A stretch of 64,000 nucleotides of DNA from Candidatus Poribacteria bacterium (GCA_965215265.1 OZ244048.1:4128001-4192000); one strand, 5' to 3'; counted from the first letter of the stretch, positions 25,325-56,625 are shown. The notes: a model not told the origin generated them from the sequence alone. Program-made: numbers and translations.

Positions 25325-25465
25325 GGTCTCTTTCAGCACGTCACCGACGGTTTTTTGGTCTCTTTCAGCACATAAGACAATGCAAAGCAGAGATTGGCTC
25401 TGACGAGATTTACACACGAGCCATCAAAGCAGAAGCGTTGACAGTACGGAGATATACAAAAAAAC
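25325..25465 (+). repeat. Dispersed palindromic repeat family copy
   Basis: GACGAGATTTACACACGAGCCATCAAAGC...GTACGGAGATATACAAAA. Confidence 0.65.
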
Positions 25466-25629
25466 GTTCCTAATTTTTGTTGATATCCTCTTCGTGATAA
25501 ACGGAAATTCGATTTTCGCTAAGTGTCCTATTGTATACTGCGGAACCGAACCTAACTCATGTTTTAGGAGACGCATCTAGTAAAGCAACACCCTATTTCA
25601 CACTCAGGGAAAGATGCAAGAATCTGAAC

Positions 25630-45711: not shown

Positions 45712-46026
45712 ATGATTACGACTACAACTCACAGCGTTGAAGGCAAGCAAATTACGGACTACCTCGGTATTGTTACCGGCGAAGCCATTATGGGGGCAAA
45801 TATGTTTCGCGATTTTCTTGCCGGAATTACCGATTTGGTCGGCGGCCGCTCAGGAACCTATGAAAACAAACTCGCGGATGGTCGCGAAACGGCCATTCTC
45901 GAGATGGAACAACTGGCAAGACAACGCGGCGCTAACGCTGTCGTTGCCGTTGACATTGATTATGAAGTGATCGGCGACAGTATGTTAATGGTAAGCGCAA
46001 GCGGAACCGCCGTTAAAATTGAATGA
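45712..46026 (+). CDS. YbjQ / UPF0145 family protein
   Basis: YLGIV.GE...GAN..RD..A...D.VGGRS..YE, GANAVV, ASGTAV. Confidence 0.9.
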
Positions 46027-46170: not shown

Positions 46171-46344
46171 TATTAACGGTTTCTTTTTAATAACAGATAC
46201 CTTCATTGATTAACGAGAATCCGCATTAGCGTAAAATTCACGAAAACCACAAACTTGATTAGATATTTGGAGGGTTTACGATTGCAATTCGGAATGACAT
46301 TATGCGACGCAACACCCTCTGAAACAACGAAGGAGACTTTACCC

Positions 46345-48348
46345 ATGCAAAACAAAACGCTACACACCTTATTTTCAATTCCAGCACTAGGCGCTGTAAT
46401 TCTGGGGCTAGTACTGTATATGTTAGTTACGCCGGAAACTGCCCACCCCCAATTCCCCAATGGTGCAATGGATATTGTGCAGGAACGCCAATTAACGCCT
46501 GATGATATCAAGGCTGCCCTCGCAACCTATACACCCACTGGCAGGCATGACGAGTATGTGATGTTCACATCAGGTGGGCACAGCGGGCAAGTGATAGTAA
46601 TCGGTATGCCCTCAATGCGTATCCTTAAAGTCATCGCCGTCTTCACACCAGATCCATGGCAGGGCTACGGATACGGTGTCAAGGAATTACCACTAAACGC
46701 CGCAAACGCCGGCGTTACAGTTGATGGACAAACCCTAACCTGGGCGGATACCCATCACCCCGCATTAAGCGAAACTAAAGGCGATTACGACGGACAATAC
46801 CTTTTCATCAATGACAAAGCCAACGGCCGCGTTGCAACAATTGACCTGAGAGATTTTGAGACAAAACAGATAGTAAAAAATCCTGTGGTACACAATGACC
46901 ATGGAGCGACGATGGTAACGCCTGACACGGAATACGTCATTGAAGGCTCACAATACGCAATGCCCTTGGGCAATGAATATGCCCCGATTTCTGAATACAA
47001 GGCAAAATATCGCGGATTGATGACTTTTTGGAAATTCCATCGAGAGCAGGGACGAATTGTGACAGATCAGTCCTTCGCACTAGAACTCCCCCCTTACTGG
47101 CAAGATTTAGCCGATGCCGGAAAACTAACCAGCGACGGATGGATTTTCTGCGGCTCTTTTAACTCTGAAATGGCCACAGGCGGGATTGAAGATGGGAACC
47201 CACCTTTTGAGGCCGGCACCACCGAACGAGATATGGATTACCTGCACCTTGTCAACTGGCGGAAAGCTGAACAGGTTTTCAAGGACGGAAAAACCACCAA
47301 CATAAACGGATTCCCGGTGATTTCGCTCGAGACTTCTGTCGCAGAAGGACTCCTCTACCTCACACCGGAACCCAAGAGCCCGCACGGCGTCGATGTGAGC
47401 CCTAGTGGAAACTACATCGTTGTTTCCGGCAAACTTGATCCGCACGTCACAGTCTATCACATCAATAAAATTAAAAAAGCAATAGAAGATAAAGATTACG
47501 AAGGTACAGATGAATACGGTGTCCCTATTCTGCGATTCGATGCTGTTCTTGAAGCACAGATCGAGGTTGGCCTAGGACCACTTCATACTCAGTTTGATAA
47601 CCAGGGCTATGCATACACCAGTCTTTTCCTTGACAGTGCTGTTGCTCGATGGACCCTTGGACCAGATGCGAAATACAAAGCCCCTGAACGCCACTGGAGA
47701 CTCATTCAGCAGCTCCCTGTTCACTACAACATTGGACATCTTGTTGCTGCCGAAGGTGACACCGTCGAACCAGATGGAAAGTACCTGGTCGCGCTAAACA
47801 AATGGGCAGTAGATCGATTCTTGAATGTTGGGCCCTTACTGCCACAAAATCTCCAACTGGTTGATATATCTGATACCGGGGACAATATGTCCCTCCTTTA
47901 CGATCTCCCGCTTGGAATTGGCGAACCGCATTATGCACAGATTATAAAAGCCGATAAACTTTCGGCATGGGAAATCTATCCAGAAGTCGGATGGGATACC
48001 GTCAAACAACAGAAACATGCAAAAGCATCAGAAAAGGGCGCTATCACCCGTAACGGAAACACCGTGGAAATCTCAATGACTGCCATCCGGAGCCACTTTG
48101 AACCCGAGATTATAGAGGTTAATAAAGGCGATAAAATTGTCTGGCACCTGACGAATCTTGAACGCACCTACGATGCGACCCACGGCTTCGCGCTACCCGG
48201 TTACAACATCACCTCAAGTATTGAGGCAGGCGAAACAGTAACGCTCGATTTCATTGCTGACAAAACAGGCGTCTTCTCGTTCTACTGCACAGAGTTCTGT
48301 TCAGCACTACACTTGGAGATGGTGGGATATTTCCTCGTCAAACCCTAA
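46345..48348 (+). CDS. nosZ: Nitrous-oxide reductase, Sec-dependent (clade II)
   Basis: CuZ His motifs DTHHP, NDHG, SPHG, GPLH, NIGH, EPH; CuA motifs HGF and CTEFCSALHLEM; no twin-arginine; AGGAG RBS. Confidence 0.95.
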   Translation: MQNKTLHTLFSIPALGAVILGLVLYMLVTPETAHPQFPNGAMDIVQERQLTPDDIKAALATYTPTGRHDEYVMFTSGGHSGQVIVIGMPSMRILKVIAVFTPDPWQGYGYGVKELPLNAANAGVTVDGQTLTWADTHHPALSETKGDYDGQYLFINDKANGRVATIDLRDFETKQIVKNPVVHNDHGATMVTPDTEYVIEGSQYAMPLGNEYAPISEYKAKYRGLMTFWKFHREQGRIVTDQSFALELPPYWQDLADAGKLTSDGWIFCGSFNSEMATGGIEDGNPPFEAGTTERDMDYLHLVNWRKAEQVFKDGKTTNINGFPVISLETSVAEGLLYLTPEPKSPHGVDVSPSGNYIVVSGKLDPHVTVYHINKIKKAIEDKDYEGTDEYGVPILRFDAVLEAQIEVGLGPLHTQFDNQGYAYTSLFLDSAVARWTLGPDAKYKAPERHWRLIQQLPVHYNIGHLVAAEGDTVEPDGKYLVALNKWAVDRFLNVGPLLPQNLQLVDISDTGDNMSLLYDLPLGIGEPHYAQIIKADKLSAWEIYPEVGWDTVKQQKHAKASEKGAITRNGNTVEISMTAIRSHFEPEIIEVNKGDKIVWHLTNLERTYDATHGFALPGYNITSSIEAGETVTLDFIADKTGVFSFYCTEFCSALHLEMVGYFLVKP

Positions 48349-48349
48349 C

Positions 48350-48622
48350 ACATCTTGGTATACTGCAGCACACCAACACTCTATGTTATGATAACCTTAG
48401 CACAAAACTCGTCAGAGAGTTCCGATGTTATGAATCTAAACATCTTGGTATACTGCAGCACATCAACACTCTATGTTATGATAACCTTAGCACAAAACTC
48501 GTCAGAGAGTTCCGATGTTATGAATCTAAACATCTTGGTATACTGCAGCACATCAACACTCTATGTTATGATAACCTTAGCACAAAACTCGTCAGAGAGT
48601 TCCGATGTTATGAATCTAAACA
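48350..48622 (+). repeat. Three 90-bp tandem copies (left arm + core of the dispersed family), followed by a right arm to about 48705
   Basis: CATCTTGGTATACTGCAGC at 48351, 48441 and 48531; one mismatch. Confidence 0.9.
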
Positions 48623-48718
48623 GAGAGAGGATTTGGGTGGGCGGGCGACGAGATTGACACACGAGTACCCACGACATAAGCGGTGACGGTACGGAGATAT
48701 ACAAAAAATAAGGAGTTA

Positions 48719-51700
48719 ATGCCCGTGCAACCTGTAGGAAAAGTCCGGCAACATTGGTTAGTAAAAGTGCTGCTGATCGTCGCCGGTATCCTCTTGCTGA
48801 TTTCGCTGTTTTTTCCTTATTGGAGCGTAGAACTTGAAACGGGTATCTATCCCAAGGGACTGACGCTGCAGATCCGGCCTTATCGGCTTGAGGGCGACGT
48901 TGAAGAAATTGACCAACTTAACCACTACATCGGAATGCGGACGCTGAAAACTGCCGGGCAGCTTGAACGCGCCATCGCCATCCCTTCAATTATTCTCGCA
49001 GCTGTGTGTCTTCTCATCGCGCCCTTTGTTCCGAAAAAGTGGTCCCTATGGCTAACGTTGCCCGGGCTCGTGTTCCCTGCGATATTTCTTGGTGAGCTGT
49101 ATTGGTGGCTCCGCGAGAGCGGTCTAAATTTGCATCCCGATGCGCCTCTCAATCAGACAATCAAGCCATTCATACCGCCGCTCTTTGGCGATGGACAAAT
49201 CGCGCAGTTCAATGCAAAAGCCGCTTTCCAATTAGGCTTCTTCCTTGCCCTGCTCGCAGGGGCGTTGTCACGGGTGGCATTTTACCTGATGAAACCTCAA
49301 TGGTTAGCGAAAAGCCTGGTCGTTGATGCCGCCCTACTGTTGATGGTTTCGGTGCTCTTCCCATATTGGCGCGTGGATTTTGAAGCCAAGAAATTCCCGA
49401 AACCGCTGATTCTGCAGGTGCGCCCGCACCGCCTTGAAGGAAATATCCGCCAGATTGACAAACTCAACCAGGATTTGGGCATGCGCGAATTGGAAACCGT
49501 CGCAGAATTTGAGCGAAAAGTGGCCTTGCCGGCAATCGCCATCGCCACGTTCTGTTTGCTCATATCTCCTATTGTACACAAAAAATGGGCCTTCTGGTGC
49601 ACCCTTCCAAGTCTGCTGTTTCCACTTATATTCATTGCGGAACTCTATAGGTGGCTCCGAAACATAGGGCTAAATCTTGATCCGGAAATGGCACTCTATC
49701 CTGACGTACAACCTTTTGTGCCACCCCTTATTGGTATGGAAAAGGTAGGTTCACTCACAACTATCGCCACATTCCAAATAGGGTTCTATTTTGCTATCTT
49801 TGCCGCGTTGATAGCAGGCGTTTCACTCTATCTACAAAAACTGAAGCGACTCGACCTTCACAAGCAGCGCCTTACAATTTTCATGGGCGTGCTAACCCTC
49901 TCGATGACAATGCCGACAATGGCAGAGACGCGAATTGTCGAATCTGATACAACCATTGAGGAGACACTGAAGTTAGCTGAAAATGGCGACACAATTATTG
50001 TGAAAGGTGGGTACCATCAGGAACGTTTCGTGATAGATACATCCGTGACACTCATCGGTGAAGATAATCCGGTGATTGATGGAGCAGGTTTGGGCAGCGT
50101 TGTCATGGTGAACGCACCGGAAGTCACTATCCGTGGATTCACAATCCGCAACACAGGCATCCAACTTTCTTCCGGCGACGCGGGCATCATGATAAAAAAA
50201 GCAGAAGGCGCACTTATTGAGGAGAACCGCTTTGAAGATGTATTGTTCGGGGTTCAAGTACGAAACTCACCGTATACCCGTGTTCAAAACAACACATTTG
50301 AAGGCAAAGCCTTAGATGTGGGACGCCGCGGAGATCTCATTCGGGTTTGGTATAGTAATGGCACTCTTGTCGAAAACAATCATGTATCCGACGGGCGAGA
50401 TGTGGTGATCTGGTACTCAAAAGAGGTAACAGTCCAGCAAAACGAAGTGCGGAACGGGCGCTACGGCATTCATTTCATGTATTGCGACGACGCGACTATC
50501 ACTGAGAATCGGTTAATCGGAAACTCTGTCGGCATCTACCTGATGTACAGTTATCGTCTACAGTTGACGAAAAATTGGATTGTGGGCAACCGCGGCGCAA
50601 GTGGCTATGGAATCGGGCTCAAAGATATGCTTGATGGGGAAATCACGGATAACTTTATCGCAGACAACCGGGCCGGAATGTTCATGGATAACGCAACAAA
50701 TACCTTTAATAACAATCTGATTGCCTTCAACGATTCCGGGCTTTTAGTCCTACCCTCCGCACGAAAAAATCATTTCGCCAAAAATAGCTTTGTTGATAAT
50801 GGAGAGCAGGTAACGATTGAGGGACAAGGCTCAATTCGGAGTAATCAATGGACTGGAAATTATTGGAGTGATTACAGCGGTTACGATGCAAATCACGACG
50901 GCACCGGCGATGCACCCTACCAATCTGTGCATCTGTTTGAGAGGTTGACAGAACAACACCCAGTCCTGCGGCTTTTTACCTACAGCCCCTCAGTAAGTGC
51001 GATTGATTTTGCAACCCGCCTGTTTCCTCTATTTATGCCACAACCGAAACTCACCGATGAAGCGCCTCGCATGCACCCGATGCCTCCAATGCTTGAAACC
51101 CCTCAAAACCGAGTGTCAGCAGTCTGGCTGATCGGTTCTGCTATCTTATGTCTCTCAGGGCTCACCTGTGCCGGATCAGGCAAATGGGTTTCGCGTTTCG
51201 CAGGGCACATTTCACACAGTAGGCACCGCGAAAACCTCAAGATGGATGCGATGCCACATCACACAAGACTCGCACCTGCTATCTTCGTCCGCAATCTGAC
51301 CAAACGCTATGGGCGTGTAACCGCTGTGGACGATTTGAGTTTTGACGTGACTGCCGGTGAAACAGTTGCACTATGGGGCGCAAATGGTGCAGGGAAAACG
51401 ACGGTGCTACGGTGTATATTGGGTATCCTGCCTTTTGATGGAACGGTAACGGTAGGCAATAACGGCGAAGAGGCATCAGCTATATCCGCGTCAAATTCAT
51501 CTCGTACAGAAGGCAAAGTACTCCGTGGACAAATGGGTTACGTCCCGCAAGAGGTAAGGCTCCACAGCGACCTAACGGTGAAAGAGACAGTCACGTTTTA
51601 CGCCCGGCTTCGATCGGTACCGCAAATCGAGGTCGAGCAGCTCATGAAAGAGTGGCAGCTTTTCGAGATTCTAAATAAGCGGGTAGGCACACTTTCTGGC

Positions 51701-52171
51701 GGTATGAAACAGCGGCTGTCGCTCGCAATTGCGCTGCTCTCGAATCCACCGATTCTTTTATTAGATGAACCGACGAGTAATTTAGACAGAGAAACACGTC
51801 AGGAATTTTGGGCTGCATTGGAACATCTCAGGGCAGCGGGCAAAACACTCATCTTCTGCTCGCATCGACTTGATGAAATCACCGCGCTCGCAGACCGCGT
51901 CATCGTTATAAAGAACGGAAAAAAGGTCACAGAAGGCCCGCCCACTTCTCTTAACAGTCATCTTTCAACGGACGTGTTGTTGAATCTGACTATCCCCGAG
52001 GCGTTTCACGGGCGTGCGAAAACGCTCCTCGCGCAGCACGGTTTCTCTGTGCAGTGCAGCGGCATGAATCTCTCAGTCCACACAGCGAATAACATGAAAA
52101 TTGAGGTCTTTCAAGTCTTGATGGATGCCGCTATTCCTATACACGATTTTGAGTACTGCAGCCAATTTTAG
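48719..52171 (+). CDS. nosD: Fusion of two NosB-like membrane domains, NosD, a TM helix and the NosF ABC ATPase
   Basis: PYW..L....YP.GL..EID.LNHYIGM (twice); RGD.IR.WYS, RYGIHFMY, GNYWSDY.GYD...DG.GD; GANGAGKTT, LSGGM, LDEPT. Confidence 0.85.
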   Translation: MPVQPVGKVRQHWLVKVLLIVAGILLLISLFFPYWSVELETGIYPKGLTLQIRPYRLEGDVEEIDQLNHYIGMRTLKTAGQLERAIAIPSIILAAVCLLIAPFVPKKWSLWLTLPGLVFPAIFLGELYWWLRESGLNLHPDAPLNQTIKPFIPPLFGDGQIAQFNAKAAFQLGFFLALLAGALSRVAFYLMKPQWLAKSLVVDAALLLMVSVLFPYWRVDFEAKKFPKPLILQVRPHRLEGNIRQIDKLNQDLGMRELETVAEFERKVALPAIAIATFCLLISPIVHKKWAFWCTLPSLLFPLIFIAELYRWLRNIGLNLDPEMALYPDVQPFVPPLIGMEKVGSLTTIATFQIGFYFAIFAALIAGVSLYLQKLKRLDLHKQRLTIFMGVLTLSMTMPTMAETRIVESDTTIEETLKLAENGDTIIVKGGYHQERFVIDTSVTLIGEDNPVIDGAGLGSVVMVNAPEVTIRGFTIRNTGIQLSSGDAGIMIKKAEGALIEENRFEDVLFGVQVRNSPYTRVQNNTFEGKALDVGRRGDLIRVWYSNGTLVENNHVSDGRDVVIWYSKEVTVQQNEVRNGRYGIHFMYCDDATITENRLIGNSVGIYLMYSYRLQLTKNWIVGNRGASGYGIGLKDMLDGEITDNFIADNRAGMFMDNATNTFNNNLIAFNDSGLLVLPSARKNHFAKNSFVDNGEQVTIEGQGSIRSNQWTGNYWSDYSGYDANHDGTGDAPYQSVHLFERLTEQHPVLRLFTYSPSVSAIDFATRLFPLFMPQPKLTDEAPRMHPMPPMLETPQNRVSAVWLIGSAILCLSGLTCAGSGKWVSRFAGHISHSRHRENLKMDAMPHHTRLAPAIFVRNLTKRYGRVTAVDDLSFDVTAGETVALWGANGAGKTTVLRCILGILPFDGTVTVGNNGEEASAISASNSSRTEGKVLRGQMGYVPQEVRLHSDLTVKETVTFYARLRSVPQIEVEQLMKEWQLFEILNKRVGTLSGGMKQRLSLAIALLSNPPILLLDEPTSNLDRETRQEFWAALEHLRAAGKTLIFCSHRLDEITALADRVIVIKNGKKVTEGPPTSLNSHLSTDVLLNLTIPEAFHGRAKTLLAQHGFSVQCSGMNLSVHTANNMKIEVFQVLMDAAIPIHDFEYCSQF

Positions 52172-52485
52172 TCTACGGCAGCACAACAAAGATTGCTGTA
52201 ATGTTCAATCCACTATAAATCTCGCCAGAGCCGTTTGATGTTATGATTTTAAAGGCTATACCTAGAGCGGCTCCGACGAGATTTACACACGAGCCATCAA
52301 AAGCATAAGTGCTGATGGTACGGAGATATACGAAAACACGAGATTTACACACGAGCCATCAAAGCATAAGCGCTGATGGCACGGAGATATACAAAAGATT
52401 GAATCTAAACATCAGGAGTCTCAGACGAGATTTACACACGAATACTCACGACATAAACGTCGACGGTACGGAGATATACAAAAAG
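52168..52485 (+). repeat. Dispersed palindromic repeat (left arm, core, three right arms)
   Basis: 3x ACGAGATTTACACACG...CGGAGATATAC. Confidence 0.8.
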
Positions 52486-52498
52486 AAGGGGACGAGGC

Positions 52499-53335
52499 AT
52501 GACAAATTCAGCAATTGTAAACATTGCGATTGTGATGCGTAAAGAGGCAGCGGATTCTAGACGTAATAAATGGTTTATCCTATTTACCGTGGTTTTTGCA
52601 GGATTAGCACTCGGATTCAGTCTGCTTGGATTTTCAGGGCTTGGCACTTTCGGCATTGCCGGGTTTGGTCGAACAGTCGCAAGCTTGATTAATCTTGTGA
52701 TGCTGATCGTACCGCTTATGGGGCTTATGTTAGGGGCTATCAGCATTTCCGGCGAACGCGAGCGCGGCAGCCTACTCCCCTTGCTCGCCCAACCCATAGT
52801 GCCCACAGAGCTTTTGCTCGGCAAATACTGCGGCACAGCAGTCGCGCTCACAGCATCAATTCTATTCGGCTTTGGATTCAGCGGCATCGTTATCGCTTGG
52901 CAGGGCGGGCTCGCACAATTCAGCGATTACTTGATGCTAGTTGGATTGACCTTACTAATTGGGCTGGTACATGTAAGCATCGGATTCCTCCTCTCTGCGT
53001 TTACATCGAAAAGCACAACAGCTATAAGTATCGCACTGCTCCTCTGGCTAACCATTGTCTTTATCAGCGACTTGGGGTTAATCGGGACAGCTGTTGTACT
53101 GCGGCTCGCACCTTCCGTAATGCTGGCATTCGCATTGATTAACCCTGCGCAGGTGTTCAAATTAGCAGCAGTTCATATCATACAAGGGAATCTCGAAATA
53201 CTCGGCGCAGCAGGACTTTATGCCGCCGATGTTTTTGGAGGTTTGCTGTTACCTACACTGATAGCGTTGCTTTCCCTATGGGTATTTATCCCCCTCTTGC
53301 TGGCAATTGGTGTCTTTCGACGAAGGAGTTTCTAA
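52499..53335 (+). CDS. nosY: Cu-maturation ABC permease NosY
   Basis: KE..DS.RN.W, ASL.NLV...VPL.GL, ERE.G.L..LL.QP, GK..G, NP..F. Confidence 0.85.
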   Translation: MTNSAIVNIAIVMRKEAADSRRNKWFILFTVVFAGLALGFSLLGFSGLGTFGIAGFGRTVASLINLVMLIVPLMGLMLGAISISGERERGSLLPLLAQPIVPTELLLGKYCGTAVALTASILFGFGFSGIVIAWQGGLAQFSDYLMLVGLTLLIGLVHVSIGFLLSAFTSKSTTAISIALLLWLTIVFISDLGLIGTAVVLRLAPSVMLAFALINPAQVFKLAAVHIIQGNLEILGAAGLYAADVFGGLLLPTLIALLSLWVFIPLLLAIGVFRRRSF

Positions 53336-53802: not shown

Positions 53803-54028
53803 CTTTAGTATATCTTAGCACGTCACAAGTTGCTGCTATGTTAATAACTTTACAAATCTCGTTCCCTCGTCTACAGGAGCCCGATACAAGGCTACTGCTA
53901 TGTTAATAACTTTACAACACGAGCCATCAAAAGCATAAGCGGCGGTGGTACGGAGATATACGAAAATACGAGATTTACACACAAGCCATCACAACATAAA
54001 CGATGATGGTACGGAGATATACAAAAAA
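53803..54028 (+). repeat. Dispersed palindromic repeat family copy
   Basis: Two left arms (GCTGCTATGTTAATAACTTTACAA) and two right arms. Confidence 0.75.
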
Positions 54029-56309: not shown

Positions 56310-56625
56310 CTTTAGTATCTCTTAGCACAACAAAGACTGCTTTTATGAACACCTTCGCACAAATCTCGTCTGAGCCCTTCGCGGTTTAGATTCTAAACAG
56401 AGAAAGCCTCCGACGAGATTTATACACGAGCCTTCAAAAGCATAAGCGATGATGGCACGGAGATATACAAAAGATTGAATCTAAACATCAGGAGCCTCCG
56501 ACGAGATTTACACACGAGCCTTCAAAAGCATAAGCGATGATGGTACAGAGATATACGAAAAAACGAGATTTACACACGAGCCTTCAAAAGCATAAGCGAT
56601 GATGGCACGGAGATATACAAAAACG
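56310..56625 (+). repeat. Dispersed palindromic repeat (left arm, core, three right arms)
   Basis: 3x ACGAGATTTA(C/T)ACACGAGCCTTCAAAAGCATAAGCGATGATGG. Confidence 0.85.

Follow-up and report, generated by a model that had tools for sequence, protein, structure and literature searches.

How nitrous oxide reductase is matured by a bacterium that carries most of the helper machinery on a single polypeptide is the question raised by an open reading frame (ORF) at positions 48719..52171, plus strand, of a 64,000-nucleotide stretch of Candidatus Poribacteria DNA (GCA_965215265.1 OZ244048.1:4128001-4192000), referred to here as the window. Nitrous oxide reductase is the sole known biological sink of nitrous oxide, clade II organisms are major consumers of this gas, and what textbooks say of the maturation machine derives from a single clade I organism. 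Judged on its sequence, the ORF is a genuine 1150-residue gene beside nosZ that joins four normally separate helper modules; the predicted protein consists, in order, of NosB, a degenerate second NosB, a signal-peptide-like linker, NosD, one transmembrane (TM) helix and an intact ABC ATPase. The explanation that best fits all observations, to which we give a probability of roughly three in four, is that this is a real clade II nos gene and an extension of a series of fusions, the product of which would be processed and assembled into a symmetric complex. The modules are arranged as follows.

48719..49303, plus strand: NosB copy 1 (residues 1-195), four TM helices, a periplasmic beta-sheet and LNHYIGM at residues 67-73
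49304..49843, plus strand: NosB copy 2 (residues 196-375), the same fold with a degenerate LNQDLGM
49844..49924, plus strand: putative retained NosD signal peptide (residues 376-402), a basic n-region and an h-region, ending in TMA before E
49925..51088, plus strand: periplasmic NosD beta-helix (residues 403-790), matched by TIGR04247 and PDB 7o0y_A
51113..51169, plus strand: C-terminal membrane anchor of NosD (residues 799-817), hydropathy 1.92 over 19 residues
51170..51268, plus strand: basic cytoplasmic linker (residues 818-850), containing the ATG at 51241
51269..52171, plus strand: NosF ABC ATPase (residues 851-1150 and stop), Pfam ABC_tran at 871-1020 with 108.9 bits

The ORF listing of the window gives a single plus-strand frame from 48683 (GTG) to 52171, in which an ATG at 48719 follows AAGGAG and opens 1150 stop-free residues. 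The listing and the translation from this ATG thus bear out the one stop-free ORF of about 1150 residues read in a preliminary description of this DNA, and profile matches, the internal repeat and a hydropathy scan recover the NosB-NosB-NosD-TM-NosF order given there. Its topology was also rightly called coherent, since in the hydropathy scan the loop charges obey the positive-inside rule for a chain with the N-terminus in, NosD out and NosF in. Support from reads was assessed with the Logan contigs of four runs over 48300-52600, which are assemblies and not raw reads. One contig of run X2, possibly the source sample, spans 48679-52222 with 0 differences and 0 gaps; a contig of run X5, from a second study, spans 49519-51705 with 0 differences; and one of run X6, from a third, spans 49102-51506 with 12 substitutions and 0 gaps. 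Both fusion junctions fall within the contig pieces of all three, and no indel is listed inside the ORF in any of the four runs, the only ones falling in an intergenic repeat (52303-52309). In the same order, genomes G032 and G038 carry stop-free full-length orthologues at 65% identity, the other 38 of 40 same-order relatives giving generic ABC matches with the fusion query, and orthologues at 54-78% identity show no frameshift. The nos cluster is patchily distributed; a genome of the same genus, G001, likewise gave generic ABC matches alone.

The assignment of the NosD module is supported by TIGR04247, which scores 409.5 bits (cutoff 300) over residues 413-786 and covers profile positions 1-377 of 377; the Pfam models NosD and Beta_helix match as well, and the NosD structure PDB 7o0y_A aligns with residues 417-787 (E 1.2e-38). 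Its context agrees: a signal-peptide-like segment lies directly upstream, and the cluster has the form Z-BBDF-Y-L. The anchor that follows, VSAVWLIGSAILCLSGLTC at residues 799-817, is a common feature of the family, in which 79 of 82 related ORFs have a TM segment after NosD, among them every one of the 10 whose NosD is unfused. As the anchor precedes the fusion, NosD and NosF would have been joined when the stop codon separating an anchored nosD from the gene after it was lost; the median linker between them in the family is 33 aa.

The ATPase module has all its motifs, namely Walker A GANGAGKT, PQE, the signature LSGGMKQR, Walker B LLLDEPT and the H-loop His1049, and the motif residues are invariant in alignment A1. 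PDB 7o0y_B (NosF) matches residues 854-1080 at E 4e-35, ABCA and ABCB domains score equally well or better, and none of the NosF-specific NCBIfam models reached its cutoff for the fusion protein; the assignment as NosF is therefore a putative one that rests on gene context and the conserved order of NosD, NosF and NosY. The closest other ABC ATPase encoded in the genome has 36% identity, and no second close NosF is present. On these profile matches the predicted protein truly belongs to both the NosD and the ABC ATPase families. The ATPase also carries an 11-residue Ser/Ala-rich insertion (51440-51500, residues ~908-928), shared within A1 only with P0010, a Poribacteria protein 73% identical to the fusion.

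For the first 400 residues there is no match to a Pfam or NCBIfam family, the libraries used holding no NosB model. The two halves, residues 1-195 and residues 196-400, share 48% identity over 179 residues (E 1e-66), and the earlier view that these repeats are NosB-like stands on three observations: they adjoin the 3' side of a Sec-type nosZ (nosZ ends at 48348, the fusion starts at 48719, and repeats alone lie between), each has four helices in both the AF2 model and the hydropathy scan, and copy 1 contains LNHYIGM exactly. In the available passages of PMC9697520 the conserved stretches of NosB are LNHYIGM and YGHN, and in those of bioRxiv 2024.05.17.594689 NosB is polytopic with 4 or 6 TM helices; both cite Hein et al. 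2017 for NosB being essential in Wolinella succinogenes. All 74 sequences of alignment A2 have the L, N, H, Y and G of LNHYIGM unchanged. Most relatives in A1 lack the His of YGHN and P0213 has YGHN, so this second stretch appears to be lineage-specific, not universal. The clusters that a protein atlas and a near-length search gave for copy 1 are unnamed or misnamed ("cytochrome C", "copper chaperone NosL", "hypothetical").

The second copy has decayed. When 40 columns conserved in at least 90% of 69 single NosB domains are taken as reference, the five tandem proteins keep on average 36.2 of 40 in copy 1 and 26.8 of 40 in copy 2, and in 5 of 5 orthologues copy 2 has lost the His and Tyr of the motif, D52 and Q155/F156. 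In a FastTree of all NosB domains the ten tandem copies group as a single clade (support 0.999), divided into a copy-1 and a copy-2 clade, the copy-2 branch being about twice as long (0.707 vs 0.363), which argues for one duplication in the tandem lineage followed by decay of copy 2. The tandem NosB is a feature specific to this Poribacteria-like lineage. A HMMER search with the NosB alignment gave 1203 cluster representatives at E <= 0.001, and the matches of only two of these extend over both copies: the cluster of the window itself and P0143, a 379-aa NosB-NosB of the window's type without NosD that is possibly a cut gene. P0213 (383 aa) is an independent tandem NosB-NosB with LNHY/LNHN and YGHN/FGHN in both copies.

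An AF2 model of residues 1-400 built from a 74-row alignment (pLDDT 90.3, pTM 0.81) gives each copy four helices, a five-stranded sheet and a short motif-bearing helix, that is, eight NosB helices in two claudin-like four-TM units. With this model Foldseek found no match at E <= 0.001, the best being claudins and transmembrane AMPA-receptor regulatory proteins (TARPs) at E 0.01-0.1 and a TMt of ~0.5. VIA-align gave Z 11.1 for TARP gamma-7 (157 aligned residues) and Z 11.1 for a designed claudin fold, with plain four-helix bundles scoring equally. The modelled fold thus suggests at most a weak claudin/TARP-like topology and offers no functional lead. A predicted complex of two NosY with the tandem NosB scored 0.00, with the verdict "no answer", and is evidence neither way.

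The preliminary description knew of no described equivalent of the architecture. In databases it is not rare. A whole-length protein search brought 1841 proteins among 8000 scored candidates, and all 120 of the matches listed (834-1300 aa) have NosD and ABC_tran in one protein; among the matches listed, 22 further 90%-identity clusters (1136-1188 aa) align over at least 97% of the length at 54-78% identity, and four (P0082, P0084, P0108 and P0111) also carry an ABC-2 permease domain. To compare fusion states, in which B, D, F and Y stand for NosB, NosD, NosF and NosY, the stop-to-stop ORFs of 80 species loci, the best 80 of 491 relatives with one genome per species, were classified with our own domain profiles. 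D-F ORFs were found at 56 of the 80 loci (8 of them at a contig edge), B-D-F at 7, B-D-F-Y at 4, B-B-D-F at 2 (both Poribacteria), D-F-Y at 1, B-D at 1 and D alone at 9. D and F therefore share an ORF at 70 of these 80 loci, in more than 10 phyla; the groups represented among the best 80 are Poribacteria, Armatimonadota, Omnitrophota, Chloroflexota, KSB1, Tectomicrobia, Calditrichota, Acidobacteriota, Elusimicrobia, Planctomycetota, Fraserbacteria, Bipolaricaulota, Vulcanimicrobiota and Lentisphaeria.

In Chloroflexota, where a 297-residue junction query was run against 401 evenly drawn genomes, 17 matched: seven matches cross the D-F junction without a stop, one more contains both parts within one 803-aa frame and another sits in an 870-aa frame; a clear split is seen in four or five, one is unclear, and two have the F part alone, giving D-F fusion in about 8-9 of 15 nos clusters. 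Among the best 150 of the 1203 NosB representatives, 33 carry NosD (22 as B-D, 10 as B-D-F with the tandem included, and 1 as B-D-F-Y), so that fusions with NosB, in the forms B-D, B-D-F and B-D-F-Y, are likewise frequent. A NosD tree nests the B-B-D-F clade within the B-D-F clade, and places unfused D in at least three separate positions and the B-D fusion in at least three. D-F fusions are common in uncultured bacteria, and only the doubled NosB is unusual here; the gene is the furthest N-terminal extension that we have seen of a series running from D-F through B-D-F to B-B-D-F or B-D-F-Y. The claim of novelty, against which a common occurrence in databases had been set from the outset, is weakened accordingly; as a statement about the literature it possibly survives, since our literature searches turned up no account of NosD fused to NosF or of NosB fused to NosD, though supplementary gene-cluster tables could show some.

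The junction between NosB and NosD has the features of an export signal. The linker, KQRLTIFMGVLTLSMTMPTMA followed by E (residues 382-402), precedes mature NosD directly, and in 17 of 17 B-D fusions, with the cleavage sites read by eye, a linker of n-h-c form with A or G at -1 occupies the same place. Median hydropathy is nearly equal in B-D linkers and in 59 free NosD N-termini, at 1.86 vs 1.83 over 19 residues (H19) and 2.58 vs 2.63 over 12 residues (H12), which indicates that the linker is an unchanged NosD signal peptide. In the window the 19-residue hydropathy of the linker is 1.22, under that of every NosB helix found at the 1.6 threshold. From these features the retained signal peptide is probably cleaved, releasing the NosB pair.

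It is proposed that the fusion protein inserts with its N-terminus in and that NosD is exported by means of the internal signal peptide, which signal peptidase I probably cleaves behind residue 402, the last of TMA. The cut would free a NosB-NosB' pseudo-dimer, in which copy 1 alone retains the conserved His/Tyr loop, and NosD would stay covalently joined to NosF through the anchor. Two such D-F chains could then dimerise on a NosY dimer, placing two NosD on each F2Y2, and ATP turnover by NosF would, as in the NosDFY whose structure is solved, drive copper from NosL via NosD to NosZ. That NosB is repeatedly fused to D, F and Y, and in print to L, would assign it to the copper-insertion module, not to electron transfer. 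For processing, an analogy is the Bradyrhizobium cytochrome b-c1 precursor FbcH, which is cleaved at an internal signal peptide (our literature search found no paper on it) and resembles the fusion in that a single precursor contains a polytopic module, an internal signal peptide and a periplasmic module. FbcH is unrelated as a protein, and the likeness provides no evidence of cleavage here.

A close counterpart is the NosDFY complex of Pseudomonas stutzeri (PDB 7O0Y series), which shares with the present system the NosD beta-helix, NosF and the neighbouring NosY and NosL, and from which the ATP-driven hand-over of copper proposed here is carried over (PMC13685413, in the passages available). 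There, however, the three proteins are separate polypeptides assembled as D1F2Y2, whereas here NosD, the TM helix and NosF form one chain with NosB in front; the P. stutzeri NosD ends 14 residues past the aligned part without a membrane anchor; and the fusion, unlike the P. stutzeri system, sits in a Sec-type clade II cluster. Compared with clade II NosB, the present copies agree in position after nosZ, in four TM helices and in the exact LNHYIGM of copy 1, but they are in tandem and fused to NosD-NosF, copy 2 is degenerate, and YGHN is replaced by SGLN or IGLN. A membrane anchor on NosD is also seen in Bacillus azotoformans, whose NosD proteins have a C-terminal TM helix according to the available part of PMC3475470; there nosD stops behind this helix and nosF is a separate gene, in the order D-Y-F or D-L-Y-F. 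NosB-NosL fusions appear in the accessible text of PMC9697520 for Dyadobacter fermentans and some Flavobacterium, where the partner of NosB is the chaperone NosL instead of NosD-NosF, both being copper-handling maturation proteins of the same pathway. A NosL domain occurs in none of 43 long NosB relatives that we scanned.

With regard to stoichiometry, the preliminary description held that one NosD normally serves a NosF dimer, and this agrees with the canonical NosDF2Y2 described in a review passage (PMC13685413) and with the chain counts in PDB (NosD 16 chains in 16 entries, NosF 30 chains in 15 entries), which fit D1F2Y2. The fusion departs from the separate-subunit form in that D and F are one ORF, and a NosD tied to NosF via its own anchor would imply two NosD per F2Y2.

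Three other readings of the locus deserve weighing against the processed, symmetric assembly. That the fusion is an artefact of assembly, polishing or gene calling, or a decaying pseudogene, might be thought from a genome consisting of one 4.83-Mb contig, an assembly type prone to indel errors, and from the presence of the gene in just 2 of 40 same-order relatives; with indel-free contigs from three studies, five genomes that have the B-B-D-F architecture without stops, all ATPase motifs and NosD family columns intact, and strain differences within the ORF that are mostly synonymous (10 of 17), this reading is close to refuted and extremely improbable. A second alternative keeps the gene and alters its output: an internal start would make free NosF, and a D-F chain together with free F would restore one NosD per F2Y2. 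Elsewhere in the family the pattern is suggestive, since an in-frame ATG stands at the aligned NosF start in 23 of 72 D-F fusions, and 14 of these 23 have a Shine-Dalgarno (SD)-like tetramer 4-18 nt upstream, compared with 65 of 816 other in-frame ATGs (Fisher p 6e-10, computed over related genomes that are not independent). The ATG and SD-like sequence occur together at the old NosF start in L014, L042, L046, L047, L057, L059, L060, L061, L065, L070, L072, L073, L076 and L084. From these sequence patterns an internal NosF start is plausible in about one fifth of D-F fusions elsewhere, even if the ATG and SD there are perhaps relics of a former nosF start. In the window there are ATGs at residues 841 and 844, but neither has an SD-like motif upstream, the five tandem-NosB orthologues have no ATG at aligned positions -1 to +2 of the NosF start, and two of them (L003 and L010) lack a Met anywhere from -12 to +2. 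The internal start near 51241 suggested earlier, which has no SD motif and a Met that the tandem orthologues do not conserve, is thus rejected for the window, and as an account of this gene the reading is very improbable.

More serious is the possibility that the polypeptide is never cut, the signal-like segment being a ninth TM helix, so that both NosB copies, NosD and NosF form one 10-TM chain and NosB is held beside NosD and NosY by covalent linkage. B-D-F-Y fusions, at 4 of the 80 loci and in the four permease-bearing proteins named above and P0157, place a whole half-transporter in one chain and show that a 1:1:1:1 linkage is tolerated; in the AF2 model helix 354-396 runs on through the linker; and the independent B-D fusion in at least three places of the tree suggests selection for proximity. 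Against it, the linker has the short h-region and the small -1 and -3 residues typical of signal peptides that can be cleaved, its hydropathy cannot be told apart from that of free NosD signal peptides and in the window falls below that of the NosB helices, and the P0143 type of NosB-NosB without NosD exists, perhaps as a cut gene. This alternative remains substantial, yet we consider it on balance unlikely.

Several points weigh against the processed, symmetric complex and the fusion series in which we place it. The A/G-at--1 pattern is permissive and was read by eye, and the signal peptide could equally be an uncleaved ninth helix. The stoichiometry of fused forms is deduced. NosB was assigned by position, topology and one of the two published motifs, the Wolinella NosB is known by description, and YGHN is absent, its place being taken by SGLN (copy 1) and IGLN (copy 2). 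Ranking of the 80 loci by their match to a fused query favours fused forms, and the Chloroflexota sample is small (15 informative genomes). Finally, the gene is known here from DNA sequence, no RNA run being listed for this stretch.

The locus bears on a larger picture. Anchored D-F fusions are the prevalent form in Chloroflexota and are found in many candidate phyla, so that the geometry of one NosD per transporter may not be general. NosB is still called a protein of unknown function in the available passages of papers from 2024 and 2026, and its fusion to NosD, NosF and NosY, and in print to NosL, provides a Rosetta-stone argument for a role in copper delivery. More tentatively, and with doubt outweighing confidence, many clade II organisms might use a symmetric (NosB)-NosD-NosF-NosY machine with two anchored NosD per transporter, in which NosB is an integral dimeric subunit and its periplasmic His/Tyr loop takes part in copper supply; the Poribacteria tandem would then indicate that one active loop per dimer suffices. 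The gene of the window is one more member of the fusion family, set apart by the tandem NosB.

The surrounding genes and repeats are consistent with a clade II nos cluster consisting of nosZ, the fusion, nosY and nosL.

46255..48348, plus strand: nosZ, clade II Sec-dependent nitrous-oxide reductase, TIGR04246 with 853.5 bits (cutoff 625)
48345..48622, no strand assigned: 90-nt tandem repeat of 3.1 copies, TRF score 540, 98% matches
48644..48708, plus strand: one copy of a dispersed hairpin repeat ending just before the ribosome-binding site (RBS) of the fusion, boundaries approximate
52272..52484, plus strand: three copies of the dispersed hairpin repeat, filling the 327-nt spacer before nosY
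52499..53335, plus strand: nosY, a separate gene for an ABC-2 permease, PF12679 with 102.8 bits
53335..53799, plus strand: nosL, copper chaperone, Pfam NosL with 44.9 bits

The likely true start of nosZ is the ATG at 46345, where a hydrophobic N-terminal segment follows MQNK. NosY is 74-86% identical to that of four tandem-NosB orthologues, and nosL likely starts with MKQ at 53335 and has a lipoprotein-like ...ITLSC. A 100-aa ORF at 48355-48657 was rejected as a gene; it comprises three copies of a 30-aa unit from the 90-nt tandem repeat, and its sole Pfam row is under the cutoff.

The dispersed repeat, 61-69 nt long, forms a hairpin CCATCA...TGATGG (folding energy -12.2 kcal/mol, z -2.0) and ends in GGAGATATACAAAA. 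It occupies intergenic spacers on the gene-sense strand, often directly 5' of an RBS, and has at least 60 copies in the genome, a first look having given 329 candidates. In the bin 48588-48731 contigs are ~50 times as deep as over the ORF, with joins between contigs at 48708. Rfam has no match over the whole window, and the intergenic repeat is therefore not a described RNA family. It is absent from the orthologous clusters, and in L002, L003 and L009 nosY starts 4 nt past the fusion stop. Further sites in the window are 53911-54027, 56409-56624 and 25399-25466. A YbjQ-family gene (putative heavy-metal-binding) at 45712-46026 lies just 5' of nosZ, and 3' of nosL are genes for a CarboxypepD_reg-domain protein, a 409-aa protein without a family and a PQQ-like beta-propeller protein.

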